From IMG/VR virus record IMGVR_UViG_3300020190_000007, positions 106,861-170,860 of that record: a stretch of DNA of 64,000 nt; one strand, given 5' to 3'. A program made the position numbers and the translations under genes. Under the pieces are notes generated by a model. The model was given only the letters and a program-made list of their open reading frames with translations. It was not told the origin of the DNA and did no database searches. The DNA is from a virus. Of this stretch, positions 10,662 through 62,709 are shown piece by piece. Numbering within the stretch: the first letter of the stretch is position 1; each line of letters opens with the position of its first letter.

Positions 10662-10862
10662 ATGATAATCGTAAACGTCAACAAAGAAAAAAACCTTGAA
10701 TCAGCATTAAAAAAATACAAATACAAGGTTCAAAAAACTAAACAAATCGAAAAACTTAGAAAAAAACAAGAATATGTTAAACCATCGGTTGAAAAAAGAG
10801 ATAAAAAATTAAAGGCGATTTATAAGCAGCAATTGTTTACCGATAAAGAAAAATCAAATTAA
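10662..10862 (+). CDS. rpsU: phage-encoded 30S ribosomal protein bS21
   Basis: 66 aa basic protein with NLESALKKYK, LR...YVKPSV.KR and KAIY motifs of Bacteroidota-type S21. Confidence 0.9.
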   Translation: MIIVNVNKEKNLESALKKYKYKVQKTKQIEKLRKKQEYVKPSVEKRDKKLKAIYKQQLFTDKEKSN

Positions 10863-11599: not shown

Positions 11600-13414
11600 T
11601 TATTCGTTTAAGAAGTTTTTAAGTTTATTTTCTATTTCATAAATATTATCTTGAGCTTTATTCATATCAAACAAATCTTCTAATTTGTCATTTTCGTTCA
11701 ACATACTCAATATATTGTGTTTTTTTGTTTCGTTCTCACTCAAAGGAGCGTCTCCACCCCCCGCTGGTGGCGGTGGTGGTGGGGTACCTCCGCCCGTACC
11801 CATATTCATACCGCCAGCATCGCCGCCAGCCGCATCTCCACCTTCTTGTCTTTCCTCTTCGGGAACCCCATATTTTGAATCAACATCATCAAATACACCA
11901 CTTCGTTTGATAACGTTTTGTGTGTTAGTTAATTCGAAACCAATTGCTCTTTCAATTCTTTGTTGTTGTAAATCAAGAATCACTTCACTGTCACTCATAC
12001 CAAGAATATTTTTCTTAGCCCAAGTATGTGAAACAGGTAGGATTCCAATTTGAGATTGGTCAGATGTTGCATCTTTATACAATACAATTTTTTCTTTCCA
12101 TTGTTCAATTCTCAACAAATCAGATTGTGCTGACGGGTTTGTTAATGATAATGTGAAATTATCTAATTCATCTTCCAAACCCAATAAGTAAAGATGAATT
12201 AATGCTATTTTATTTAATTCTTGAATTACCGATTTTTGAATTCTGTTGATTGTTCTTGCAAAACGAATATCCATCAACGCGAGAGTTTTACCGTCACCAA
12301 CAACTTCTTCAAAACCTAAGAAAGCTTTTGGAATACGAAGTGCCGCCAACATTTTCTTTTGGATATATTCAATGTCGGCAATTTCACCTAAGTTTTGTGC
12401 CCCTGCTAATGTTTCAATAGGATTTGTTTGAGCTGGGTCACGAACAGGGATGAAATAATCTTGGTCAACCGCCATTTGATTATATCTCATATCAACTTGA
12501 CCGTTTCTTGAATCAACCACTTGGTCTCTTTTAAATTTATTAGCCACACGTTGTACATAAGCCTCGATGTCTTTGTCATCCATGTTACCAACAAATATTT
12601 TAAAAACCCTTCTTTCAGGTGCTCTTGTTGTTCTATAAATCAACATAGCATCCTCTGCTAAAAGTAATTGTTTCCAAATTCTTCTAATTTTATCCAACAT
12701 AGAGGTACCATAAGGAAGTTTTCTATCATCACCCAATAATCTAAAATGGGCTATTTCCCAAGCTTGAAATTCTAAATCTTTATTTTTCCATTGAAATCTT
12801 AACTCTCTTGTTGGAAGTTGCATTGAGTTTTGTTGATTTGGTGTTTTGCTTTCTTTACCTTCATGTCTTTCAATTTCAATATTAGGTAATTGTTGACACC
12901 CAATAATACCTCTTTCAGGGTCTATTTTAAGGTAAACAAAGTTATCGCCGTACTTACAAGTACCCCTTGTCCACATTTGTAAGTTAGTGTTCAAATCTAA
13001 CCTATTCATAAACAAATCATCAAGAATAATTTTGACTCTTGATGATTCTGAAAAAATAGTTAATATTTCACCTTTTTCAGATAATGTTGTTGATTCTTCG
13101 GCGTATATATCTAAAGCGGCAGAAATTTCAGGAGTAAATTCCATCGATTCATAATCGTAATATGCTGACAACCTATTTGGTTCGTAATATACCGATTGAT
13201 TATAAAGAGATTGGTCAAGTTTTGTCCACTTGTCTGCAATGTATTGACTCTGCTGAGCTTGTAGCATCGATTTTTCATACTCCTCCCTACTATTTGTTTT
13301 TAGTATTTGTTCTTTATCAAAATTGAAAGACGGAGCCTCCTCAGGAGTTACCCTACCAGGGAACCCAAACATTTTTGTTAATCTCTGAAATACCGTTAAA
13401 TTACTTTCCGCCAT
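11600..13414 (-). CDS. portal protein (T4 gp20-like)
   Basis: EDAMLIYRTTRAPERRVFKIFVGNM, DYFIPVR, IETLAGAQNLGEIADIEY motifs. Confidence 0.95.
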   Translation of the reverse strand: MAESNLTVFQRLTKMFGFPGRVTPEEAPSFNFDKEQILKTNSREEYEKSMLQAQQSQYIADKWTKLDQSLYNQSVYYEPNRLSAYYDYESMEFTPEISAALDIYAEESTTLSEKGEILTIFSESSRVKIILDDLFMNRLDLNTNLQMWTRGTCKYGDNFVYLKIDPERGIIGCQQLPNIEIERHEGKESKTPNQQNSMQLPTRELRFQWKNKDLEFQAWEIAHFRLLGDDRKLPYGTSMLDKIRRIWKQLLLAEDAMLIYRTTRAPERRVFKIFVGNMDDKDIEAYVQRVANKFKRDQVVDSRNGQVDMRYNQMAVDQDYFIPVRDPAQTNPIETLAGAQNLGEIADIEYIQKKMLAALRIPKAFLGFEEVVGDGKTLALMDIRFARTINRIQKSVIQELNKIALIHLYLLGLEDELDNFTLSLTNPSAQSDLLRIEQWKEKIVLYKDATSDQSQIGILPVSHTWAKKNILGMSDSEVILDLQQQRIERAIGFELTNTQNVIKRSGVFDDVDSKYGVPEEERQEGGDAAGGDAGGMNMGTGGGTPPPPPPAGGGDAPLSENETKKHNILSMLNENDKLEDLFDMNKAQDNIYEIENKLKNFLNE

Positions 13415-20272: not shown

Positions 20273-22291
20273 ATGTCAGTAGATTTTTTCGAAGAAGGAA
20301 ACACAACCAACCCAAAGAAAACAAGAAAGGGTTCAACCACCCCTATCCTTGATAACTTTTCAAGGGATTTAAACAAAATGGTAGAAGAGGGTAAAATTGA
20401 CCCAATAATTGGGAGAGATGGTGAGGTTAAAAGAATTGCACAGATATTATCTAGAAAAAAGAAAAACAACGTAGTGATAATTGGTGACGCGGGTGTGGGT
20501 AAATCGGCTTTAGTTGAGAAACTCGCTCAGATGATTGTAAAAGGAGATTGTCCATCAAATCTTTTAGACAAACGAGTTGTATCATTAGATTTAACATCTT
20601 TGGTGGCTGGTACAAAATACAGAGGTCAGTTTGAAGAACGTATTAAAGCAGTTCTAAACGAAATACAGAATGAACCTAATGTAATTGTGTTTATTGATGA
20701 AATACACACAATGGTTGGTGCTGGCAACGCTAGCGGGTCAATGGACGCCGCTAATATTATGAAACCCGCATTAGCTCGAGGAGAAATTCAATGTATTGGG
20801 GCGACAACATTTGATGAATTTAAAAAACACATCGAGAAAGATGGTGCATTAGTTAGAAGATTTCAAAAAATAATTTTGAAAGAACCAAGTAAGGAAGAAA
20901 CAGTTCAAATTTTAAAAAATTTAAAAGATTCATATCAAAATTTTCACAAAGTATTTTATGAACCGGAGGTTTTTGAAACTATCGTGAATTTGTCATCAAG
21001 ATTTATCACAGACCGTCAGTTTCCCGATAAAGCAATTGACGTGATGGATGAATTGGGTTCAGAAAAAAAAATAAATACCAAAATTCCTGAGATTATTGAA
21101 AAACTAAAAAAGGAATCTGATGATTTAAAAAATAGGAAGATAGAAGTTGTAAAAAGTCAAAACTATGAACAAGCGGCTAAATTAAGAGATGAAGAAAGAA
21201 AATTACTGAGTAAATTAAATGATGAAAAAAAGAAGTGGTTAGACAAACAAAAAGACAATAAAACACCCGTAACGGTTGCAGATGTATATGAAATGATTTC
21301 ACAAATTACAGGTGTACCTCTCTCTAAGATTGATGATACAGAGACCGCAAATCTTTTGAACTTAGAAGAAAAATTAAAATCTAAAGTAATTGGTCAAGAC
21401 GAGGCTATTTCAATAATTTCCAAATCAATTAGAAGAAATAGGGTTGGTATTAAAGATACAAATAAACCAATAGGTTCTTTTATATTTTTAGGTTCAACTG
21501 GTGTTGGTAAAACATATCTCGCAAAATCGATTGCTGAACTACTTTTCGGAGACTCCGAAAAAGTAATTCGTGTTGATATGAGTGAATACATGGAAAAACA
21601 CAACGTGGCAAAATTAATTGGTTCACCTCCAGGTTATGTTGGTTATGATGAAGGAGGCCAACTTACTGAGAAGATTAAAAATAATCCATTTTCTGTGGTA
21701 TTGTTCGATGAGGTTGAAAAAGCACACAAAGACGTTTTCAATATCTTACTTCAAATTTTGGATGAAGGACATTTAACCGATTCGTTTGGAAGAAAAGTAA
21801 ACTTTACAAACACTATAGTAATCATGACATCCAATATTGGTGCAAAAAAAGTATCTGAATTTGGTAAGGGTGTTGGTTTTAGTTCATCATCTTCAGAATC
21901 ACAAAACTTTGAGGTTAAAAAATCAATCGTTCAAAAATCATTAAAACAACACTTTAACCCTGAGTTTTTGAATCGAGTAGACGACATAATCAGTTTTAAT
22001 TCGTTAGATAAAGATGTAATTAAAAAGATTATTGAAATTGAATTAAATAAGTTGTCTGTTAGATTAAAAGAAAAAAATTATAAAGTTTCTTTTGATAAGA
22101 CAATTGTGGAGAGAATATCGGAACTTAATATTCAAGAAGATTTTGGTGCAAGACCAGTTAAAAGAATCATCCAAAATATGTGTGAAGATTATTTAAGTGA
22201 TTCAATCTTAAAAGGCGAAATTAAGGAGAATGATTCCATTAATTTAAAATTTAAAGACGGTGAAATAAAAATTTTTAAAAAAAGGGTGTAA
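20273..22291 (+). CDS. clpC: ClpC/ClpB-family AAA+ ATPase lacking the N-terminal Clp-repeat domain
   Basis: GDAGVGKS and GSTGVGKT Walker A motifs, GTKYRGQFEER, GSPPGYVGYDEGGQLTE, UVR-like QNYEQAAKLRD, GVGF loop. Confidence 0.88.
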   Translation: MSVDFFEEGNTTNPKKTRKGSTTPILDNFSRDLNKMVEEGKIDPIIGRDGEVKRIAQILSRKKKNNVVIIGDAGVGKSALVEKLAQMIVKGDCPSNLLDKRVVSLDLTSLVAGTKYRGQFEERIKAVLNEIQNEPNVIVFIDEIHTMVGAGNASGSMDAANIMKPALARGEIQCIGATTFDEFKKHIEKDGALVRRFQKIILKEPSKEETVQILKNLKDSYQNFHKVFYEPEVFETIVNLSSRFITDRQFPDKAIDVMDELGSEKKINTKIPEIIEKLKKESDDLKNRKIEVVKSQNYEQAAKLRDEERKLLSKLNDEKKKWLDKQKDNKTPVTVADVYEMISQITGVPLSKIDDTETANLLNLEEKLKSKVIGQDEAISIISKSIRRNRVGIKDTNKPIGSFIFLGSTGVGKTYLAKSIAELLFGDSEKVIRVDMSEYMEKHNVAKLIGSPPGYVGYDEGGQLTEKIKNNPFSVVLFDEVEKAHKDVFNILLQILDEGHLTDSFGRKVNFTNTIVIMTSNIGAKKVSEFGKGVGFSSSSSESQNFEVKKSIVQKSLKQHFNPEFLNRVDDIISFNSLDKDVIKKIIEIELNKLSVRLKEKNYKVSFDKTIVERISELNIQEDFGARPVKRIIQNMCEDYLSDSILKGEIKENDSINLKFKDGEIKIFKKRV

Positions 22292-22329
22292 ATATTCATA
22301 CTTTTTAAAAAAACATATATATTTATATT

Positions 22330-22435
22330 CACACAGGATATCTTTGCCGATTTCCTTTCGTTTTATAGTCTGTGGTGTTGAAACCACAAAATGACCACAA
22401 ACCCCCGACTCTCTGTTGGGGGTTTTTATTTTTTT
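22330..22435 (+). ncRNA. putative small RNA (partner of the 31871-32040 RNA)
   Basis: TATTTATA motif 22320-22327; no ORF; CACAG/CTGTG stem enclosing a pyrimidine-rich loop; strong terminator 22399-22430. Confidence 0.45.
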
Positions 22436-22482: not shown

Positions 22483-22896
22483 ATGGAATATACAAAAGAT
22501 TTGATATTAGTTAGGGGTTTACCCGGCTCGGGTAAATCCACTTTAGGTGAGGTCATTCTTTATACCCCAAATAATCCAATGAAACCATTGTCGGCGGATG
22601 ATTTCTTTACAGACAAGGAAGGTAACTACAATTTTGACCCAATAAAATTAAGGGAAGCTCATAACGACTGCCAACAAAGGTGTGCAAATTTGATGATGAA
22701 TAGCGTCGTAAGAGTTGTTGTGTCAAATACGTTTACCCAAGAATGGGAAATGGAACCATATTTTGAAATGGCGAAAAGATACGGATATCGAATTCACACT
22801 ATTGTTGTTGAAAACAGACACGGTGGTGAAAATGTCCACGGAGTACCCTCTGACAAATTAGAGATTATGAAAAATCGTTTTGAAGTAAAACTGTGA
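22483..22896 (+). CDS. P-loop kinase (AAA_33 / polynucleotide kinase-like)
   Basis: LILVRGLPGSGKST, SADDFF, VVSNTFTQEWE, NVHGVP motifs. Confidence 0.85.
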   Translation: MEYTKDLILVRGLPGSGKSTLGEVILYTPNNPMKPLSADDFFTDKEGNYNFDPIKLREAHNDCQQRCANLMMNSVVRVVVSNTFTQEWEMEPYFEMAKRYGYRIHTIVVENRHGGENVHGVPSDKLEIMKNRFEVKL

Positions 22897-24772: not shown

Positions 24773-24858
24773 GCCGCTGTGTTGAAACAGGTAGACAAGA
24801 GAGACTTAAAATTTCTTGGACAGTAATGTCCGTGCCGGTTCGATTCCGGCCAGCGGTA
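24773..24858 (+). tRNA. tRNA-Leu(UAA)
   Basis: GCCGCTG/CAGCGGT acceptor, CTTAAAA loop, long variable arm, GGTTCGATTCC. Confidence 0.93.
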
Positions 24859-24922
24859 CAAAAATGGAAAACTCCTCAAATCTACAACTACGGTTATCGT
24901 AGAAGGAAATTTCCATTTTAAT

Positions 24923-24994
24923 GGGCCCATAGGTAAAGGGATATACCCTCTCACTTCTAATGAGATATTCCAAGTTCGAATCTTGGTGGGCCTA
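24923..24994 (+). tRNA. tRNA-Arg(UCU)
   Basis: GGGCCCA/TGGGCCT acceptor, TCTCA-CTTCTAA-TGAGA anticodon arm, CCAAG-TTCGAAT-CTTGG T arm. Confidence 0.9.
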
Positions 24995-25170
24995 CGAATT
25001 TAAATGATGTCTCTTTCTATGACAATTTGAACATAAAAGAACACATTTATTAAGTTCATTTTTGATTGATTCATCAGACTTCAATCTGAGTTTTGACCAA
25101 TCAACATCTTTTTCAGAAGGATTTAAATGGTGAAAATCAAAAATGACATATGAACGATTGAACTTTTGTT
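24992..25170 (-). pseudogene. 3' remnant of an HNH endonuclease
   Basis: FDFHHLNPSEK...ELNKCVLLCSNCHRKRH; the N-terminal CxxC part is absent. Confidence 0.7.
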
Positions 25171-25272
25171 CGTACAGATTGTGGTAATTGGACATGTCAT
25201 ATGAATCCCTCGGGACATAAAAAGGTGGCAAATGCTGTTATCACACAGATGAAATTCAAAGTAAAAAACTAA
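25171..25272 (+). pseudogene. 3' remnant of a probable SGNH/GDSL hydrolase
   Basis: Plus frame reads RTDCGNWTCHMNPSGHKKVANAVITQMKFKVKN*, resembling the block V H.N..GH..hA motif. Confidence 0.45.
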
Positions 25273-25321
25273 TATCGCCGATTTAAACGATAATTCATTT
25301 TATCGGTTATTTCGACGATAC

Positions 25322-25395
25322 GGTCCCTTAGCTCAGTTGGTCAGAGCACCCGACTCATAATCGGTAGGTCCACGGTTCAAGCCCGTGAGGGACCA
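25322..25395 (+). tRNA. tRNA with CAU anticodon (probably Ile2, lysidine type; Met possible)
   Basis: GGTCCCT/AGGGACC acceptor, CTCATAA loop, overall similarity to bacterial tRNA-Ile2. Confidence 0.88.
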
Positions 25396-25421
25396 CGAGA
25401 TATTTATATAATAAAAAAATC

Positions 25422-25874
25422 ATGGGAATTGAATTAAAAAAGAAAAAACAACTTATCGAAAGATTAAACAAAAGACTCCTATCCGAAGCGGAAATGGAAT
25501 GTCCTAAAGCAACTCAAGATTTAGAGTTAAATACCAATAATAGAGACAAGTCAATAAAAGCGGATTATATAAAATATGGTCCACTTAATATTGACGAACC
25601 CGGTGATTATTGGGAAATGGTTGCATCTGATTGGAACACCACTGTTGAAGCTGCTAAAAAATCACTATGTGGTAATTGTGTAGCATTTGATATATCACCA
25701 AGAATGGATGAGTGTATGCCAGGTTCGGTTTCTGATGATAGTGGTAGATTAGGGTACTGTTGGATGCATCACTTTAAATGTCACTCCGCAAGAACATGTA
25801 AAACATGGGCAAAAGGTGGTCCAATTACCGAAGATACGGTGTCCTATGAGTGGCAACAAAAAAATCAAAAATAA
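25422..25874 (+). CDS. Cys-rich hypothetical phage protein
   Basis: CGNCVAF, GYCWMHHFKCHSARTC..W; TATTTATA at 25401-25408. Confidence 0.7.
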   Translation: MGIELKKKKQLIERLNKRLLSEAEMECPKATQDLELNTNNRDKSIKADYIKYGPLNIDEPGDYWEMVASDWNTTVEAAKKSLCGNCVAFDISPRMDECMPGSVSDDSGRLGYCWMHHFKCHSARTCKTWAKGGPITEDTVSYEWQQKNQK

Positions 25875-25943
25875 TATCAACATGTGGTCGTACCCTTAAC
25901 TCCAAAACCTATTAAGGAAATCGTTATGGGAAGACCACTCCAA

Positions 25944-26018
25944 GCGGGAGTAGCTCAGTGGTAGAGCATCGCCTTGCCAAGGCGAGGGCCGTGGGTTCAA
26001 ATCCCATTTCCCGCTCCA
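25944..26018 (+). tRNA. tRNA-Gly(GCC) with encoded CCA
   Basis: GCGGGAG/TTCCCGC acceptor, TTGCCAA loop, TCCA end. Confidence 0.95.
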
Positions 26019-26822: not shown

Positions 26823-28895
26823 ATGACAACAAGGAATTTAGTTGCGTTTCAAAAAGGTTTGGTCTGTTCACCAAACGACGGTCAAGATAATAGAATCGCG
26901 GTAGCAACCGTTCAATCCCACTTAATGCAATGGGGTTACATGTTAGACGAAGATGCTTTCTTCGCGTTGTCCAAATCAGAATTATCGTTTATTCAAAACT
27001 TCAATCATGAAGTATTGAATCATTTGAAAAATGTAATGGGTGGTAATCGTAATTACCAACCCCTATATAAGAATTTCCCACAAGAAGTGATGGTTATGTC
27101 CGACTTCGAATTATACATGAACGCAATCTTGCATTATTGGAGTAATGGTCAATGGGAACCATCAACCCACACTTACGAAAAAGAAATCAAGTTTGAAAAA
27201 ATTAAATACAACTTGATTAAGTATGGTACCTCTGATAGATTCTCAAAAATTTTCACTGACTTAGTGTCAATCAACACATCATTAACCCCCCAAGACCTTG
27301 AGATTGTTAAGTGGTTTGTATCAAGTGGTGAAACATTGATTTTCCCTGACACAATTCCTTTCAAAGAGAATTTGTGTACACTTGCGGGAATGGGAATCGA
27401 GGGACTTCCAGTAAAGACTTCAACCGACGTGTTAAGAATAGCCGTTCATCTTTCAGGTGGAGACATTAGTTTACCTAAAGTTCCTGAAAAGGAAATTAGA
27501 CTAAACAGATGGTCTACCGATAAAGGAGTAAATCCCGAAAGAGAAAAGTTTAAATTCAAGAAATTCACTCGTAAAGAGAGGAAGTACATCTTGAATTTAC
27601 TTGAGAACACAAACTGTGACCCAAGAGAAATGGTTTTAAGAGACCAACGATGGGTTCGTTTAGGTGAAATCTTACACCCGGGTGAGTATAAAAACCAATT
27701 CCCTAAATCTTTTGATGCGTTCAACAAGATTAGAAACGAGAAAGTAAAATCTTGGTTCTCCCTTGTAGATGAGGGATTCAAAAAAAGTTTGGAGAATGGT
27801 TTGAGAGTATTGTCTCAAAGACCCGGTGAATTCTCTCGTCGATTAGATTGGTTGGTTCGTACATATCCACAAGATATTGAAACAATTATGAAATTATTCG
27901 GAGAAGCGGTAAAAGGTACATCAAACAAAGTATTGTTTGAGGTTTACACTCACTTTGAAGGTCGTACTGAACCTAAAACAAATAGGTCAGTTATGATTAA
28001 AGGAGCGAGAAAACGTACCGAATTACCATCACTACAAGCAATCCCTAAAGAGATTGTGGAAACCATCCACTCTAAATTATTCGAAACTCTTAGAGATAAG
28101 TTTTCGGTAATGGATTCTTTAGGTAACTGTTGGATTGATGAGGAATTAAAAAAGATTCCTTTACCAACCAACATGAGAAGTATGAACTTCTCAACTAAAC
28201 CTACCATCAGAGGTCAACGAGTTCCGCTCGATAACCCCGATGCAAAAGTTATCAGACCATTTATTCATTGGATGGATAAACGTGGTTCTGAAGACTTGGA
28301 TTTAAGTGTTACGTTTGTTGGTGAAAAAGTGTCAGAAGTACTATCTTTCAGTAACTTGAGAGTTGGTAACTCTGTTCACTCGGGGGACGTGAGACATAGA
28401 CAGGGTCCTTGTGCGGAGTACATCGACATCGATATTCAAGATGGATTAAATCGTGGATTCAAGTACGCGGTTATTGACGTAAGAAACTTCAATGGCGGTA
28501 GTTTAAGTTCACTTGAAACATCCTTTGGTATCATGGAGAGAGAACATCCTGAATCAAACACGACATGGTTACCTGAGACAATTTCAAATTGTCAATCATT
28601 AGAATCTGAGTCGTCAAACACTTTGATTGCAATTATTGACTTAGAAACCAAAGAGTACATCATGTTGGACATTGATTCAAGTGGTTTTGTAACCGCGAGG
28701 AGCGACTTCAATAACACCTTTAAAGTAATTCAACAATACGCTGAATTACCAAAAGTAAGTGTTTATGACCTTATTCTTCTACACGTAGAAGGTCGAGGAA
28801 AACAAGTTACCCTTGACGAGAATGTGGATACACATTTCAAGTACGAGGACTTCTGTTACTCTTATGAAGAGACAGGTAAATTGATGGGTGTCTAA
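26823..28895 (+). CDS. 690-aa protein: large helical N-terminal region plus C-terminal TerD-like domain
   Basis: DLDLSV, HSGDVR..G..AEYIDID and VRNFNG TerD-like motifs; conserved-looking TDVLR.A..LSGGD.SL, W.RLGE.LHPGEY and RPGEF.RRLD.L.R blocks. Confidence 0.7.
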   Translation: MTTRNLVAFQKGLVCSPNDGQDNRIAVATVQSHLMQWGYMLDEDAFFALSKSELSFIQNFNHEVLNHLKNVMGGNRNYQPLYKNFPQEVMVMSDFELYMNAILHYWSNGQWEPSTHTYEKEIKFEKIKYNLIKYGTSDRFSKIFTDLVSINTSLTPQDLEIVKWFVSSGETLIFPDTIPFKENLCTLAGMGIEGLPVKTSTDVLRIAVHLSGGDISLPKVPEKEIRLNRWSTDKGVNPEREKFKFKKFTRKERKYILNLLENTNCDPREMVLRDQRWVRLGEILHPGEYKNQFPKSFDAFNKIRNEKVKSWFSLVDEGFKKSLENGLRVLSQRPGEFSRRLDWLVRTYPQDIETIMKLFGEAVKGTSNKVLFEVYTHFEGRTEPKTNRSVMIKGARKRTELPSLQAIPKEIVETIHSKLFETLRDKFSVMDSLGNCWIDEELKKIPLPTNMRSMNFSTKPTIRGQRVPLDNPDAKVIRPFIHWMDKRGSEDLDLSVTFVGEKVSEVLSFSNLRVGNSVHSGDVRHRQGPCAEYIDIDIQDGLNRGFKYAVIDVRNFNGGSLSSLETSFGIMEREHPESNTTWLPETISNCQSLESESSNTLIAIIDLETKEYIMLDIDSSGFVTARSDFNNTFKVIQQYAELPKVSVYDLILLHVEGRGKQVTLDENVDTHFKYEDFCYSYEETGKLMGV

Positions 28896-28923
28896 ACTCA
28901 CCCATTAGTTCTTTGAAATATTA

Positions 28924-29342
28924 TATGTGGCTATGTGAGCCATTGAGAGGATAGTCAACTGACCATCACATCAAACCACGGAGTGGTTCTGTTTTGGTCC
29001 TTAGCGGTGACAAAAGTATCAATGCAAACGTCTTACTTCTAACAAACAACTATCAGATACGAAAACCAGACACACAATTTCCACATAACTTCTTAGACGG
29101 CTATGTATTGGGTTACTTCTGCTAGGGGACTAATGTCCCCCCTTCTATAACAATTATATGTTACATTACCCGTACTTTTTCCGTCAATCATATTGAGTGG
29201 CTATCTATCAACTTACTTCTAAATTTTAAGCAAAAAATCAAAAATTAGTTGTAGTCTTTCCACTTTTAAAACACACATGGATATGTGTTCAGTTATTTCT
29301 ACTTTGACCGATAATCAAAACAATTATTGACACAGTTTCCAT
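28924..29342 (+). ncRNA. array of four covarying structured RNA units (28924-29087, 29096-29185, 29196-29264, 29277-29342)
   Basis: Shared GG-CTAT...TACTTCT...TTTCC frame with compensatory changes in three helices; preceded by boxA-like GTTCTTTGAAA. Confidence 0.75.
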
Positions 29343-29383
29343 TTTTTAAAAACAACAAAATAAATAACATAAAAACAACAATT

Positions 29384-29830
29384 ATGGCAACAAAAACAAC
29401 TGACCAGAAAGTAAAAGAACTATTCGATTTAGTTCAAAGTAAAAAATTAGCAATTGAAAAAGCTGAAAGACCTTGTTGGAAAACCAGCGGTAACTTTGGT
29501 TATTCAGCGAATTCCGCACATGACAGGACATCAATTCCAACTATCACAGATGTACGTAAAATCGTAGAGATGTACGCATTTCTGATGGAAAGAAAAGATA
29601 AATCCGAAACCGCAGCCAAAGAACTTGGCGTAAACTACAAATTCACATGGTTAGGATTTACTGTCGATGAATGGAAAGATGATTTTCAAACAAGAGTAAA
29701 TCAAATTTTAATTCAAGAAAAACGTAAAGAACTTTCTGAAATTGAATCTCGTTTGAATTCATTAATTTCACCCGAGATAAGAGTACAAATGGAATTGGAA
29801 GCAATCACGGAGTTACTTAACGAAAAGTAA
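29384..29830 (+). CDS. hypothetical coiled-coil protein (start at ATG 29384)
   Basis: A-rich Bacteroidota-like translation initiation region before ATG 29384; the upstream TTG start falls inside RNA unit 4. Confidence 0.7.
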   Translation: MATKTTDQKVKELFDLVQSKKLAIEKAERPCWKTSGNFGYSANSAHDRTSIPTITDVRKIVEMYAFLMERKDKSETAAKELGVNYKFTWLGFTVDEWKDDFQTRVNQILIQEKRKELSEIESRLNSLISPEIRVQMELEAITELLNEK

Positions 29831-30693: not shown

Positions 30694-31269
30694 GGGGGTG
30701 TATGGAATTGATTGGCGTTGATATGGTAAATGGGCACGTAGTCGGATGTCATCTACGACTTTAATCCACGGTGGTAAATTTTAAACGGCAACGTTTATAA
30801 CCAAATGGAAGTAGCAGGTCTTCTTGCGACTTCTAAAGTTGCAGCCTAATTGGTTGTAACTAACGGGTCGACGGACAGATAACCTTGGAACAGAAGTCCT
30901 TGTAGGGTGTGGTTTCTATCCTAAAAGAAACAAAGTGGAAGATTAGTTCTCAGTAAACCGAACCACTTTAAAATAAGGGAATTGTGAATTTCGGAGTATT
31001 AGAAAATACTGTCCTAAACGTGTAGTCCATTTATTGTATTGCGAGCAAGACGCGGGTTTTTAATCGAGCCCCTTCATATCGTGAGATATGTCGAAAATCG
31101 GATGAACTCAGGGGAAGTCTTTTAGATAATCCTGAGCCAAGCCTGATAGGAACAGGAAGGTGCAGAGACTAGTGGGTGATAGACGCTTCTATCGTAATAC
31201 CACATTAGCGTCCGACATCTCGTTGAGATGATGATATAGTCCAATAATTGTCGAAACCCGCCACCTCCA
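30694..31269 (+). ncRNA. ssrA: tmRNA, intron-containing; tag peptide (A)GNVYNQMEVAGLLATSKVAA at 30787-30849
   Basis: GGGGGTG/CACCTCC-A acceptor with G3.U70; GAC-GCGGG-TTCGAAA-CCCGC T arm after splicing; tag ORF ends in AA; promoter TATCTTTG 30668-30675. Confidence 0.9.
31058..31250 (+). mobile_element. ORF-less group I intron in tmRNA T-loop
   Basis: 5' exon ends in U with P1 GGGT/GCCC; core motifs AATCCTGAGCCAAG, GGTGCAGAGACTAG, GATATAGTCC; terminal G; removal restores the T-loop. Confidence 0.88.
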
Positions 31270-31272
31270 CAT

Positions 31273-31302
31273 TAAAGGGAACCTCAAAAGGGTTCCCTTT
31301 TA
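31273..31302. terminator. bidirectional terminator between tmRNA and nuclease gene
   Basis: AAAGGGAACC/GGTTCCCTTT hairpin. Confidence 0.75.
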
Positions 31303-31805
31303 TTTTTAATTAAAATACTAATTAATTCATGAATATACGCATCATCCATTTCATTTTTCATCCAATTAATTGCCCTTGAAACCCATCTAACATTTCCTTT
31401 AACATAACCTAATTTATTATCTATCCTATCTAAAGACGCAGAATATATTGGATTCTTTTTTATTTTGGTATATGATGACAACTCTAATTTTATACCACTG
31501 AATGGACAAATTCCATTTTGTAAAACCCATTGATTAGACAAATCTTCAATAGTTAAATCAATAATTTGATTTCTTTTTTTAATATTTCTAAAATGATATT
31601 TGAATTTTGAATATTCCCCACCTCTATTATTTGAGTGTCTTTGTATATCGTATCGATTTTTAACGTTTAATAAATTTTTAGTATTGTTAATACCAACACA
31701 ATTTCTTGAACAAAAATTAGGTCTATTTAATTTTTTATTACGATTTAATTCAGAATTTGATTTTTCAAATTCAATCCCACAGCTTGAACAAATACATTTT
31801 CCCAT
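31284..31805 (-). CDS. free-standing HNH/His-Me finger endonuclease with N-terminal Zn finger
   Basis: CSSCG...FCSRNC; CPFSG..L; SLDRID...GYVKGNVRWV...IN.MK. Confidence 0.78.
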   Translation of the reverse strand: MGKCICSSCGIEFEKSNSELNRNKKLNRPNFCSRNCVGINNTKNLLNVKNRYDIQRHSNNRGGEYSKFKYHFRNIKKRNQIIDLTIEDLSNQWVLQNGICPFSGIKLELSSYTKIKKNPIYSASLDRIDNKLGYVKGNVRWVSRAINWMKNEMDDAYIHELISILIKNKREPF

Positions 31806-31870
31806 TTTATTACTTTATTATAAATATGGAGATAATGGGAAAAGTATGGAGGTGTTACTAATTAAATAAT

Positions 31871-32040
31871 AAACCCACCAATTGGTGGGTTTTTTGTTTT
31901 AAGGACACTTTGTCCTCGATATTGTCTTTGAGAGGTATATAACGAACAAAGAGGTCAATTCAGACCCCTTTGCCGAGATGTGGAATACCTCCTTTCGTTT
32001 TTAGTCTAATTATCATCTCATGGCGACCAAACCATTTGAT
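31871..32040 (-). ncRNA. putative structured small RNA displaying an extended SD-like sequence
   Basis: TATTTATA motif (32047-32054, minus); several stems (G.U wobble favours minus strand); hairpin 31871-31895; contains GAAAGGAGGUAUUCCA. Confidence 0.55.
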
Positions 32041-32069
32041 TCTAATTATAAATATCTTGTAATCTTAAT

Positions 32070-56575: not shown

Positions 56576-56695
56576 TTTTTTAAAATCAACTACTTATCAA
56601 ATAAAAAGTATTTAATATATTGATTATCAATATTATAATTAAATTTAAGGTAATGACGCCCTTTAAATTCAAAATAAAATAATAAAATATTTATA

Positions 56696-57070
56696 TTGAA
56701 ACGAAAGGTCAAAATGAAAGCAAAACAATCGGTGGCGGTAATCAAATTTTTAGATTCAATAAGTAAAAGTGTACTTCTAAATGTGTCAGTTGAAAGTTAT
56801 TTTACATTCTCAAAGGAGAAAAAAATCACCACCCAATTTTTAATACTCAAAATGGTAATCAAATCGATGAATGTTAAATTAAACACAAACGAGGCTATTT
56901 TACCAAATTTATTAAAATCATTAAAAAATAGAAATGAAAACTTGGAGAATTATGAATTTGCTGAAGTCTTAAAAAATATAGAATCTAACTTGGATAAATT
57001 GTTAGATATGACTAAAACAAATATAAGAACAAAAAGAACTATTAAGACAAACAAACCAAACGATGTCTAA
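56696..57070 (+). CDS. hypothetical protein
   Basis: ORF track (true start probably ATG 56714). Confidence 0.55.
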   Translation: MKRKVKMKAKQSVAVIKFLDSISKSVLLNVSVESYFTFSKEKKITTQFLILKMVIKSMNVKLNTNEAILPNLLKSLKNRNENLENYEFAEVLKNIESNLDKLLDMTKTNIRTKRTIKTNKPNDV

Positions 57071-57461
57071 AAGAAATATTGACGAAGAGTTGAAGATTTC
57101 TTACACCAAGATGGCTCTTGAGTGGTGTGTTGAGAATTTTGGGGTTAACAGTAGAAAGAGAAAAAAGTTAATTCTTGAAATTAATGATAAATCTCGAATC
57201 GAAGGCAAGATGTGGTACTATGGACAATACTGTTTTAATAAAAACAAAATTGTCATTTATATTTCTAACTGCGAAACCATAGATGATATAATCTCAACAA
57301 TAATTCATGAGTATACCCATTACCTACAATCAAGTTATTTATATCGACTTTATGAAAAATGTTATTACTATTCACAAAATCCATGTGAAAGACAAGCGAA
57401 AAGAAATGAAATAAAATACACTAAAGAGTGTATAAAAGAATTAAAGAAATTAATCAGGTAA
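57063..57461 (+). CDS. HExxH metallopeptidase-like protein
   Basis: TIIHEYTHYLQ...NPCERQA. Confidence 0.7.
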   Translation: MSKRNIDEELKISYTKMALEWCVENFGVNSRKRKKLILEINDKSRIEGKMWYYGQYCFNKNKIVIYISNCETIDDIISTIIHEYTHYLQSSYLYRLYEKCYYYSQNPCERQAKRNEIKYTKECIKELKKLIR

Positions 57462-60302: not shown

Positions 60303-61871
60303 ATGAGATTCACAGAAATACTGTTTGACACATTATTAGAGGAGGTAAAAAACAAGAAGCTCTTCAACACCCTAATGGATATTTGGAAAACAGAAAGACC
60401 AAATATTACAGACGAAGAAGGTGAAGGGCTTTTTTATGACTTTGCTAAAATAAAAGAAGGTTTAAGGCCTGACCGACCACAAGTATTTACATTTTTAAGT
60501 AGATACGACGGTGAACACGGATATCCAAAATTTGACCCAAATAATTTAAGACAGATTGAAAAATATTCTTATTCTCAATTATCGTTTTTATTAAACGAAT
60601 TTAGACCTGAAGAAAGAGCAGTTGAGAGAGATGTTTTTGCCGGTAGTGATACAAAAGCGTCACCAGAGAGAATAGAAGCGTCAAGAAGATTATGGTTTGG
60701 TAACGATAATTTAGTATTCGAAAGAGATGGTCTTAGGGTTTATGCGATAAGAGACCAACAAATGTCCATACGATATGGATACTGGTATCACACAATGTAC
60801 AAAAAAGCATTAGGTAGACCTGAACAATCTGACAGAGATATTTCTCCATGGTGTGTAACTTGGAGACCTGATATGGGTAAATCAAATATGTGGGGTAATT
60901 ACCGAGGAGAAAGAACATTTTATTTTGTTATTGATGAAAATAAAAGTGAAAATGACCCATATTTTATAAGTACAATCCAAAAAGACACAGGAGTTAATAC
61001 CGGTTTCAGAATTACAAACATGATGAATGGTGGTGACCTTGTTAAAACATGGGAAGAGATAGAAGAAATATATCCACAACTTAGAGGCGAAAGAAATATA
61101 ATAACAACCAAACCATTTTCACAAGAGGAATTATCTCTAAGAGATGTTGTTGGTCAAATAAACGAAAGAGTTGGTGGACAATACGAATTTAAAAGAATGG
61201 AAAAGGGATATAAAAGAGCTTATATCCAAAACGGTGGAACATTAGCAAAACCGGAATCATGGAGGTCAATGGATGACGAACTACGTAATTTGTATATTGT
61301 GTACCCCGAAATAAATCAGTACAACGTTAAAGAAAGATACGGTAACTTTGATTTCCTCAGTGAAATTAAAAAAGTTGGTAATCAATTTAATTTATTGGAC
61401 AGAACTTTAAGAGAAAAAGGTATTGGTGACGGAGTTGGGACTATCGTTGATTTCTTGATGGCTAACGAATTTAAAATTGCGAGAGTTAGTGGTGATAATA
61501 AAAAAATCAGACTATACGAAAGTAAAATTAACGGTAAATCAGGATTGTATAACGTGTCGACAAATTCATGGGTAGAAAAAGATGGTAAGGTTTATGAACC
61601 AAAATATGTACACATCGATACCGATGTTTATGTGGATACGGAAGGAAACACATATGTTGTAGATGTTTACAGTACAAGTACTCAAGCAAACGACGACTCT
61701 TTCTATTCAGTTTACAGTGTTGGTGATGAAAATCCGGAATACAACGCACACTTTATGTCATCTAAACAATTTAAGATATTAATGAAAGAATTGTCTCCTG
61801 ATGATGGTAGTGAACCCGAAACAGACAAACCGGGTGATTACACAGATATAAAAGAAAAAAGGGGTTATTAA
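60303..61871 (+). CDS. hypothetical (probable late/virion) protein
   Basis: 522 aa; WCVTW...W.NY...TFYFVID motif; TATTTAT 60274-60280. Confidence 0.65.
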   Translation: MRFTEILFDTLLEEVKNKKLFNTLMDIWKTERPNITDEEGEGLFYDFAKIKEGLRPDRPQVFTFLSRYDGEHGYPKFDPNNLRQIEKYSYSQLSFLLNEFRPEERAVERDVFAGSDTKASPERIEASRRLWFGNDNLVFERDGLRVYAIRDQQMSIRYGYWYHTMYKKALGRPEQSDRDISPWCVTWRPDMGKSNMWGNYRGERTFYFVIDENKSENDPYFISTIQKDTGVNTGFRITNMMNGGDLVKTWEEIEEIYPQLRGERNIITTKPFSQEELSLRDVVGQINERVGGQYEFKRMEKGYKRAYIQNGGTLAKPESWRSMDDELRNLYIVYPEINQYNVKERYGNFDFLSEIKKVGNQFNLLDRTLREKGIGDGVGTIVDFLMANEFKIARVSGDNKKIRLYESKINGKSGLYNVSTNSWVEKDGKVYEPKYVHIDTDVYVDTEGNTYVVDVYSTSTQANDDSFYSVYSVGDENPEYNAHFMSSKQFKILMKELSPDDGSEPETDKPGDYTDIKEKRGY

Positions 61872-61883
61872 ACCCCTTTTTTT
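61855..61883. terminator. bidirectional terminator
   Basis: AAAAAAGGGGTT-ATT-AAACCCCTTTTTT between convergent genes. Confidence 0.75.
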
Positions 61884-62709
61884 ATGATAACAAAGAATAG
61901 TATTCTTTAAAATGTTTTATACGGTCAGCTAACCCTATTGTACCACCATTTACTCTTTTTGTAATTTTTGTAACCACCGCGTCGGTAGCACCTTCGTCCG
62001 CCATTTTGTGTAATCCGTTTTTACTAAAAAACCAAGCCGCAGATAATAAGGCATATTTTGAAGAAACCAAATCAGGATTTGAAATAACATCCTCATTAAT
62101 TGCTTTACCGAATGCTGTATAGTTATCCTTTCCGGTTAATTGAATGTACCCTCTGCCACGAAATTTATACCCTTCTTTTGTTGGTTCAGCACCATTACCC
62201 ATTCTACCTCCATAAACACGAGATGCAATCGCTTCGGGTTTTCTTTGATATTGTTCTGCTAATGCGTCAGTCGGGAAATATTTTCCAAAAATACCTCTTA
62301 GACCTTTTGCCGAATAATTTAAATTTTCTTGTGTCGCCTTAAACCCACCTGATTCGTGACCACATTGTGCTAAAAAATGTGCCAATCTCAATGGTGTGTT
62401 TATTTGAAACTTTTGCGCGGTGTCAGGAATCAAAGCAATTACCGCATCGGGTATGTGACCTTTTAATTTTTCTAATTTTAAACCACCAACGTTAGGCGCT
62501 GGCGACGGTTCGGTGATTACTGTTTGTGTTGCAAACATTTTAGACCAAGTACCAACACCCACAATTCCGTCCGCTGTTAGTCCATTGGTGGACTGCCATC
62601 CTTTAACTGCCAACTCGGTACCACTACCAAATACACCGTCAGCGGTTAATCCTAATTTTTCTTGTAATTTTTTTACATCTTCACCTGTAGAACCTTTTTT
62701 AAGTAACAT
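61882..62709 (-). CDS. endolysin: PG-binding domain plus GH19 catalytic domain
   Basis: LKKGSTGEDVKKLQ..ADGVFG; AHFLAQCGHESGGF, ENLNYS, FRGRGYIQLTG, RVNGG..GLADR. Confidence 0.92.
   Translation of the reverse strand: MLLKKGSTGEDVKKLQEKLGLTADGVFGSGTELAVKGWQSTNGLTADGIVGVGTWSKMFATQTVITEPSPAPNVGGLKLEKLKGHIPDAVIALIPDTAQKFQINTPLRLAHFLAQCGHESGGFKATQENLNYSAKGLRGIFGKYFPTDALAEQYQRKPEAIASRVYGGRMGNGAEPTKEGYKFRGRGYIQLTGKDNYTAFGKAINEDVISNPDLVSSKYALLSAAWFFSKNGLHKMADEGATDAVVTKITKRVNGGTIGLADRIKHFKEYYSLLS

Follow-up and report, generated by a model that had tools for sequence, protein, structure and literature searches.

The window analysed here, the final 64 kb of a 170,860-bp IMG/VR phage record whose completeness is estimated at about 55%, comes from a giant freshwater phage whose genome includes both a bS21 gene and a small RNA gene which encodes no protein; the group to which the phage belongs is predicted to have freshwater Bacteroidetes as hosts (PMC9723584). 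The small RNA, referred to below as RNA B, lies in a 264-nt gene-free stretch bounded on one side by the stop of a gene for 320 aa (32070) and on the other by the start of an HNH-type nuclease gene of 173 aa (31805). The features of this locus, of the partner RNA described below (RNA A) and of a candidate target are collected in Table 1. A first-pass annotation made from the sequence had drawn attention to the stretch, and the elements it listed are all present: the minus-strand motif, the terminator hairpin, GAGAUG (32014-32019), CAUCUC (31975-31980), AUACCUC (31932-31938) and an 18-codon ORF (32016-31960). Its description of the stretch as free of genes also holds, in that no conserved ORF is found there, as does its assignment of a bS21 gene to the phage. 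The partner RNA was missing from that reading.

Table 1. Positions of the features discussed in the text (window coordinates; strand as + or -)
Feature	Position	Strand	Remarks
bS21 gene, phage-encoded	10662-10862		21 kb from RNA B; no SD
Putative promoter motif ATATTTAT of RNA A	22319-22326	+	
RNA A	22328-22427	+	model R2, 113.6 bits; in 24 of 25 related contigs
RNA A pairing segments CUUUGCCGA and CCUUUCGUUUUAUAGUCU	22342-22350 and 22354-22371	+	complement the sequences on either side of the SD hairpin of RNA B
RNA A hairpin with GUUGAA loop	22372-22387	+	covarying
RNA A UGACC	22392-22396	+	complement of the H1 loop
RNA A terminator	22399-22425	+	
RNA B	31865-32043	-	about 178 nt here; conserved core 31937-32043; covariance model R1, 116.6 bits
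Bidirectional intrinsic terminator	31871-31892	both	terminator scan; preceded by a small hairpin, 31902-31916
Cis anti-SD AUACCUCU	31931-31938	-	subclade-specific; close relatives only
Hairpin H3, arms GGCAAAGGGGUC / GACCUCUUUGUU	31945-31974	-	arms invariant; loop varies by 3-6 nt
AUCUC, 3' strand of weak helix P2	31975-31979	-	invariant; pairs with GAGGU (31987-31991)
AUUCCA extension of the 16-nt complement	31981-31986	-	in the variable P2 loop; not conserved as a block
SD-like core GAAAGGAGGU	31987-31996	-	perfect complement of the 16S 3' tail ACCUCCUUUC
GAUAA, single-stranded	32010-32014	-	conserved; nearly invariant in alignments A2 and A4
Hairpin H1, 8-nt loop UUUGGUCG (32024-32031)	32020-32035	-	loop conserved; covariation
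Putative promoter motif ATATTTAT of RNA B	32048-32055	-	upstream of every RNA B homologue; as TATTTATA, 32047-32054
AAACGAAAGG (gene X, 5' leader)	56699-56708	+	identical to the RNA B motif; complements RNA A

The gene on the 3' side of RNA B (31284-31805, minus strand) gives a match of the HNH / endonuclease VII type (phrog_3322, 6.5e-22), has its own ATATTTAT motif, adjoins an intron-containing tmRNA and is found in the same position in at least nine related contigs. The tmRNA-like gene itself (30694-31277, plus strand) scores 35.4 bits with the Rfam tmRNA model, which is under the cut-off of 47, and a group I intron (RF00028, 68.8 bits; 31048-31260) interrupts its T-loop; 3' of this intron come AAACCCGCCACCTCCACA and then a terminator. 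In the related contigs L063 and L067, RNA B is convergent with, and directly beside, the 3' end of an opposite-strand tRNA-like gene, with no nuclease gene between the two; this neighbour, which in L067 ends in …CCGGCTCCACCA, is probably a tmRNA, and if it is one, the HNH gene would have been inserted in the present lineage. The interval between RNA A and RNA B contains a gene for a polynucleotide-kinase-like (Pnkp-like) ATPase (22483-22896, plus strand; phrog_2071, 1e-39) and four tRNA genes (24773-26018, plus strand; Leu-UAA, Arg-UCU, Met-CAU and Gly-GCC), which together with the tmRNA make up an RNA-centred block of ~10 kb, as well as, in the region 26823-29830 (plus strand), a gene for a 690-aa protein for which a Pfam search returned no match. 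Immediately 5' of RNA A is the gene for a Lon-like ATP-dependent protease (20273-22291, plus strand; phrog_4871, 817 bits). It has been speculated by McNutt et al. that bS21 phages might carry a protease targeting host bS21 (PMC9976891).

RNA A and RNA B each have their own conserved ATATTTAT motif and their own terminator hairpin, and are predicted to form two separate transcription units. The motif occurs on the correct strand 1-45 nt 5' of many phage genes, including those for terminase, portal, head protease and bS21, and is a putative promoter; because it stands 5' of these genes as well, it is reasonable to suppose that RNA B, if transcribed from it, is expressed late. Motifs of the ATATTTAT type end 1-5 nt before the ATG at 13414, 15242, 38397, 54758 and 56696 (portal and terminase included), and the late mRNAs concerned may have no leader or almost none. 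The probable 5' end of RNA B is set by a conserved AGAG/AGAA 4-7 nt past the motif, and the probable 3' end by the terminator. An element with weak similarity (27-35 bits when scored with the model of RNA B) is found at 61847-61949 on the minus strand, and also in L155 and L156; it consists of a hairpin, AUAAAACA, an A/U-rich stretch and a AAAGGGGUU/AACCCCUUU terminator, it has no SD-like core, and it may be another small RNA or just a terminator. Weak R1 matches of this kind (25-35 bits) were rejected as members of the family because what they share with it is solely a terminator-like hairpin.

Conservation, structure and coding capacity of RNA B

Homologues of RNA B were sought with two kinds of anchor, a conserved flanking block for viral contigs and the H1 loop plus the H3 arm for metagenome contigs, and 51 distinct homologues were obtained from phage and metagenome contigs, which bears out the conservation across related phages that the first-pass annotation had named as a check on its proposal. 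When the viral contigs were instead searched for the exact 16-mer complementary to 16S rRNA, 23 of the 25 matches were unrelated SD sites or coding sequence, and the only homologues recovered were those of L021 and L025. Of 25 related phage contigs, 21 contain a single copy each that scores strongly with the covariance model; the closest relative, the 288-kb contig G001, ends within the neighbouring gene, and its RNA B falls outside the comparison. Rfam 15 contains no family for RNA A or RNA B, and the Rfam matches that touch the RNA B stretch do so at its terminator end only (Phe_leader, 33.8 bits with a cut-off of 55; BSnc120, 20.8 bits with a cut-off of 114). No description of either RNA was found in a full-text literature search.

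The layout shared by the homologues begins with ATATTTAT, about 5 nt, AGAG/AGAA, hairpin H1 with the 8-nt loop UUUGGUCR, and GAUAA, and it continues in the 3' part with an A-rich linker, (C)GAAAGGAGGU, a variable segment of 5-12 nt, AUCUCGGCAAAGGGGUC, a loop of 3-6 nt and GACCUCUUUGUUCGUU. Structural support is concentrated in H1, where six of the eight pairs show compensatory changes and two-sided changes are counted in 69 cells compared to 19.3 in shuffles, a value reached by none of the 500 shuffles, with slid controls near zero. In H3, a change of GG to AA in two contigs converts G.U to A-U pairs, and the hairpin is otherwise without covariation; its 5' arm is the second RNA A pairing site (31968-31976). 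The P2 helix is predicted by RNAalifold and by the MFE fold and has one G.U to A-U change, again without covariation. Two further structural assignments were rejected: a helix P1 (AACGAA/UUCGUU), which appears in no fold but the MFE one and is not backed by compensatory changes, and a terminator function for H3, which is not called by the consensus scan and is followed by a separate canonical terminator in most clades. The G.U pairs of H1 and H3 and the compensatory changes fit the minus strand alone, the strand to which the RNA is assigned. Taken together, the comparisons of related sequences support RNA B as an independent, conserved, non-coding RNA gene.

If the stretch instead encoded a small protein, this would be either the product of the 18-codon ORF, which had been put forward as an alternative explanation when the locus was first annotated and which is indeed present in the window, or that of a non-AUG ORF starting at a conserved AUC, which every member has 6-12 nt past the core. 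Relatives do not keep the reading frame: several, L021 and L025 among them, lack the AUG of the 18-codon ORF, the close relative L089 is frame-shifted by a 1-nt deletion, and 10 of the 51 homologues have no AUG ORF whatever. Conservation is moreover at the nucleotide level, third positions included, and since the indels in the H3 loop are not multiples of three, a coding role is excluded, which leaves a small protein gene hardly credible.

A cis-acting leader or attenuator of the downstream nuclease-like gene (31284-31805) would account for the presence of that gene downstream in three close relatives, and in one of these, L021, a deletion has removed the terminators that separate element and gene. 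In the wider family, however, both the downstream neighbour and its strand depend on the clade (a zinc-ribbon gene, a convergent gene or a convergent tRNA-like 3' end), and a canonical terminator usually lies in between. Because the neighbour is not constant and is preceded by a ATATTTAT motif of its own, RNA B is not regarded as a leader, and this explanation is considered very unlikely.

The Shine-Dalgarno-like core and the 16S rRNA 3' end

In Bacteroidia the anti-SD sequence is hidden under bS21, bS18 and bS6 and an extended SD is found on rpsU only, and in F. johnsoniae ribosomes free of bS21 show a gain of activity on mRNA with an extended SD (PMC7797042, PMC9976891). The first-pass annotation had stated both this occlusion and the rarity of SD sequences outside rpsU, in agreement with these studies, and it had also given the 3' end of Bacteroidota 16S rRNA. 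That end, ...GCGGCUGGAACACCUCCUUUCU / GTGCGGCTGGAACACCTCCTTTCT, has exact matches in over 120 genome contigs, which are almost all from Bacteroidota and include Flavobacterium, Polaribacter, Winogradskyella, Algoriphagus and Segatella. With the 16S end confirmed in this way, the 16-mer at plus-strand positions 31981-31996 (TGGAATACCTCCTTTC, which reads GAAAGGAGGUAUUCCA in the minus-strand RNA) is complementary to it at 15 of 16 positions, with one A.C mismatch, exactly as had been claimed. The full 16-nt complement is nevertheless not the unit that is conserved: the core of 9-10 nt is retained across the family, but the 3' part, AUUCCA, lies in a variable hairpin loop, where the position-wise match to the 16S tail ranges from 8 to 96%.

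Among the approximately 342,000 positions on both strands of the 170,860-bp genome, the core ranks first for pairing with ACCUCCUUUCU, at -17.1 kcal/mol for a 10-bp perfect match against the 11-nt 16S tail, and it alone among the top genome sites is built of Watson-Crick pairs, the others being G-runs. Duplex energies computed against a 17-nt tail lie between -14.2 and -25.4 kcal/mol for the 51 homologues, and between -20.4 and -21.6 kcal/mol for the real rpsU sites of four Flavobacteriia genomes evaluated by the same method. The core thus has the two pairing properties by which an rpsU-type site is recognised, at least 9 contiguous bp with the 16S tail and an exceptionally strong energy (the published threshold of < -13 kcal/mol was derived with a different energy model). 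A further property of such sites, a start codon about 5-9 nt downstream which opens a bS21 frame, is absent, and in none of the 51 homologues is there an AUG, GUG or UUG 3-12 nt past the core, in line with the earlier observation that no start codon follows at SD distance. The sequence GAAAGGAGGU matches the published 'perfect' F. johnsoniae SD oligo AGAAAGGAGGU at 10 of 11 positions (PMC7797042). SD-like sequences precede 2 of 78 crude phage ORFs, both of which are dubious calls in the tRNA region. A search for RNA B homologues in which the SD matches the alternative anti-SD AUCUCAUU, using patterns that required the conserved H3 arm, found none.

The core belongs to the same class, GAAAGGAGGU(G/A)U, as the extended SD of rpsU in Flavobacteriales and other Bacteroidia (Jha et al. 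2021, PMC7797042; McNutt et al. 2023, PMC9976891). Like those sites, RNA B has 9-13 nt of complementarity to the 16S tail, with a predicted energy equal to that of the real ones, and like rpsU in a host genome it stands out as the sole strong SD in a genome otherwise without them. Unlike an rpsU site, it is phage-encoded, has neither start codon nor ORF, and comes with its own conserved fold and with an antisense RNA as dedicated partner; the phage bS21 gene itself, again unlike rpsU, has no extended SD.

The manner in which the site is presented differs from what had first been proposed, namely a 16-nt complement freely displayed in a loop closed by GAGAUG/CAUCUC, with the downstream AUACCUC as a possible pseudoknot partner. 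The closing stem is available in a few close relatives only and does not appear in the predicted folds, and the core is predicted to be paired with AUCUC and, in the present phage, also with AUACCUCU. AUACCUC does pair with the core in the predicted fold, but it does so in a subclade-specific manner and not as a pseudoknot: in the full-length fold, AUACCUCU and GGAGGUAU form a nested helix that encloses H3. The predicted cost of opening the SD is 7.4 kcal/mol with AUACCUCU and 3.2 kcal/mol for the conserved core alone, with a family mean of 4.7 kcal/mol. The SD-like site is predicted to be partly masked rather than displayed in a loop, and could still be invaded by a duplex worth 17-24 kcal/mol.

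Of the ribosomal proteins encoded by phages, bS21 is the one carried most often. In the related contigs it is present in 19 of 25, both nearly complete ones included, and in seven of them it lies about 11.4 kb from RNA A. The co-occurrence of bS21 and RNA B, a further check named in the first-pass annotation, is real but confounded, because common descent and conserved synteny would produce it as well.

Predicted contacts of RNA A: RNA B and the gene X leader

RNA A contains the sequence CUUUGCCGA-UUU-CCUUUCGUUUUAUAGUCU, which complements AGACUAAAAACGAAAGG and UCGGCAAAG in RNA B, the flanks of P2; the pairing with the upstream flank is denoted I1 and that with the 5' arm of H3 is denoted I2. 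The complementarity is kept in all 16 distinct cognate (genome-matched) pairs of the two RNAs, in which the energy of I1 is between -15 and -29 kcal/mol, with z from -2.3 to -6.5 compared to shuffles. Cognate pairs have a mean of -20.6 kcal/mol as against -18.0 kcal/mol for permuted pairs (p about 1.5e-4), a comparison which ignores phylogeny and in which the difference comes down to one or two clade-level events. One clade is remodelled in both partners, with CUCGUUAAUCAAU in RNA A and AUUGAUAAACGAG in RNA B, and in one clade GAUAA (32010-32014) falls inside the RNA A pairing. In two contigs, changes in I2 on the RNA B side (the H3 5' arm) are unmatched in RNA A, and the energy is -4.6 kcal/mol. 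A contact between the H1 loop and RNA A (GGUC/GACC) was considered and rejected, as it comprises 4-6 bp at most and the flanking position is without covariation. Two of the properties expected of a sponge pair are therefore present, namely separate units, as judged from sequence, and complementarity with matched changes in relatives, as judged by a comparison that is not phylogeny-aware.

The footprint of RNA A includes 6 of the 10 SD nucleotides, and in some clades, in which RNA A has CCUC, GGAGG could be covered too. Since six of the ten core nucleotides are in this way also explained by complementarity to RNA A, the conservation of the core need not imply an interaction with the ribosome.

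A possible mRNA target of RNA A is gene X (56714-57070), which encodes a 118-aa protein of no known family and whose leader starts with AAACGAAAGG right after a ATATTTAT motif. A leader motif of the AAACGA type is found in 16 of the 19 gene X homologues, and in close relatives the leader reads AAACGGGAGG together with CCUCUCG in RNA A, which constitutes one compensatory switch. The comparison of cognate with permuted RNA A-gene X pairs does not reach significance (p = 0.058), and the pairing is weak in four clades; gene X as a target that shares the mimicked motif is put forward as a lead only. Its leader is SD-like (AAACGAAAGG here, AAACGGGAGGU in close relatives), which is unusual for an SD-less phage, and the gene (region 56687-57461, plus strand) overlaps a 132-aa metalloprotease-like gene (phrog_87, 7.8e-6; weak Peptidase_M78 match).

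These pairings could constitute a purely RNA-RNA circuit in which RNA B is either a sponge (a target mimic) or a target of antisense RNA A and in which the ribosome is not a ligand, the SD-like sequence imitating, or deriving from, the purine-rich leader of an RNA A-controlled mRNA such as that of gene X. Such a circuit would explain the presence in every cognate pair of two or three stretches of complementarity (18 nt interrupted by one bulge, 9 nt, and 5 nt in a loop contact), the matched remodelling of one clade, and the occurrence of the same motif in the gene X leader with its joint switch, and RNA A is CU-rich, as known anti-SD small RNAs are. It does not explain why GGAGGU is nearly invariant even though in most clades the footprint of RNA A does not reach it, and the circuit is weakened by the unmatched I2 changes and by the weak and non-significant pairing with gene X. 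On balance a circuit of RNAs alone is judged rather unlikely, while still deserving serious consideration.

Several known systems offer partial parallels. CU-rich anti-SD small RNAs are exemplified by the RsaE/RoxS type, the phage antisense immunity RNAs P1 c4 and P4 CI act via two short complementary segments, and AgvB and AsxR of EHEC prophages are sRNA sponges, or anti-sRNAs. A bacterial example of the last class is CrfA (PMC12559287). The present pair resembles AgvB, AsxR and CrfA in consisting of two independently promoted RNAs with extended conserved complementarity, one of which shares a motif with a candidate mRNA target; it differs from them in that the mimic, RNA B, contains a full-strength ribosome-binding signal and in that both RNAs have the same type of promoter motif. 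RNA A, with its unpaired CCUUUCG or CCUCUCG, resembles the RsaE/RoxS-type maskers of purine-rich ribosome-binding sites and, like P1 c4 and P4 CI, has two short segments of complementarity, but there is no sequence or structural homology with RsaE/RoxS, P1 c4 or P4 CI, and RNA B, unlike the partners in those systems, is not an mRNA leader.

Possible roles of the RNA pair

The long invariant stretches without covariation in P2 and H3 might be taken to indicate a structured RNA that binds a protein, such as the phage bS21, the Lon-like protease encoded beside RNA A or another phage protein, in which case the invariant UUUGGUCR, GAUAA and AUCUCGGCAAAGGGGUC would be protein contacts. The region is rich in RNA-handling genes (tRNAs, tmRNA, the Pnkp-like ATPase and the Lon-like protease), which would suit such a role, but no particular protein is tied to RNA B. 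Because the invariant stretches coincide with the complements of RNA A and of 16S rRNA, which already explain them, protein contacts are not needed, and a protein-binding role is considered improbable.

The complementarities point instead to two ligands for RNA B: the 3' tail of 16S rRNA on 30S subunits without bS21, and RNA A. The reading preferred here, which combines the two, is that RNA B is a decoy in which the ribosome has a part and to which RNA A controls access, and it is regarded as a real possibility that stops somewhat short of being probable. According to this proposal RNA B would be transcribed from the minus strand by the promoter type common to the structural genes and the bS21 gene, and its centre is a start-less copy of the extended SD that Bacteroidota use solely on rpsU. 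It would act as a mimic of an initiation site: the 16S 3' tail, exposed in such hosts solely on bS21-less 30S subunits, would find in it a pairing site that is of high affinity but a dead end, and the binding of RNA B would compete with host rpsU mRNA during the production of phage bS21. Access to the site would be controlled at two gates, the first being the weak internal pairing (with AUCUC and, in the present subclade, with AUACCUCU) that would mask the site, and the second being RNA A, which would pair with both flanks, cover 6 of the 10 SD nucleotides and open H3. The use of one promoter type by both RNAs tells against a gated decoy, as it is unusual for a regulator and its target. A more specific version, in which the mimic captures bS21-less host 30S subunits and thereby shuts off host bS21 autoregulation, phage bS21 takes over the pool, and RNA A times or buffers the capture, is more doubtful, and would at present have to be called somewhat unlikely.

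Both sRNA sponges and SD mimicry are known, and what is new in this phage is their combination: a full-strength, start-less site of the rpsU type in a phage that encodes bS21, together with a dedicated partner RNA. Suitable reagents already exist in the form of wild-type and bS21-deficient 30S subunits of F. johnsoniae and rpsU'-gfp reporters, and a conserved start-less rpsU-type signal in the genomes of bS21 phages provides a concrete and testable handle on ribosome takeover. If the more specific version of the decoy proposal is true, RNA B would be the first RNA decoy directed against the anti-Shine-Dalgarno sequence of a specialised ribosome subpopulation. Regardless of any link to the ribosome, RNA A and RNA B are two new and conserved phage RNA families with mutual complementarity, and would represent a rare RNA-RNA circuit in the jumbo phages of Bacteroidota.
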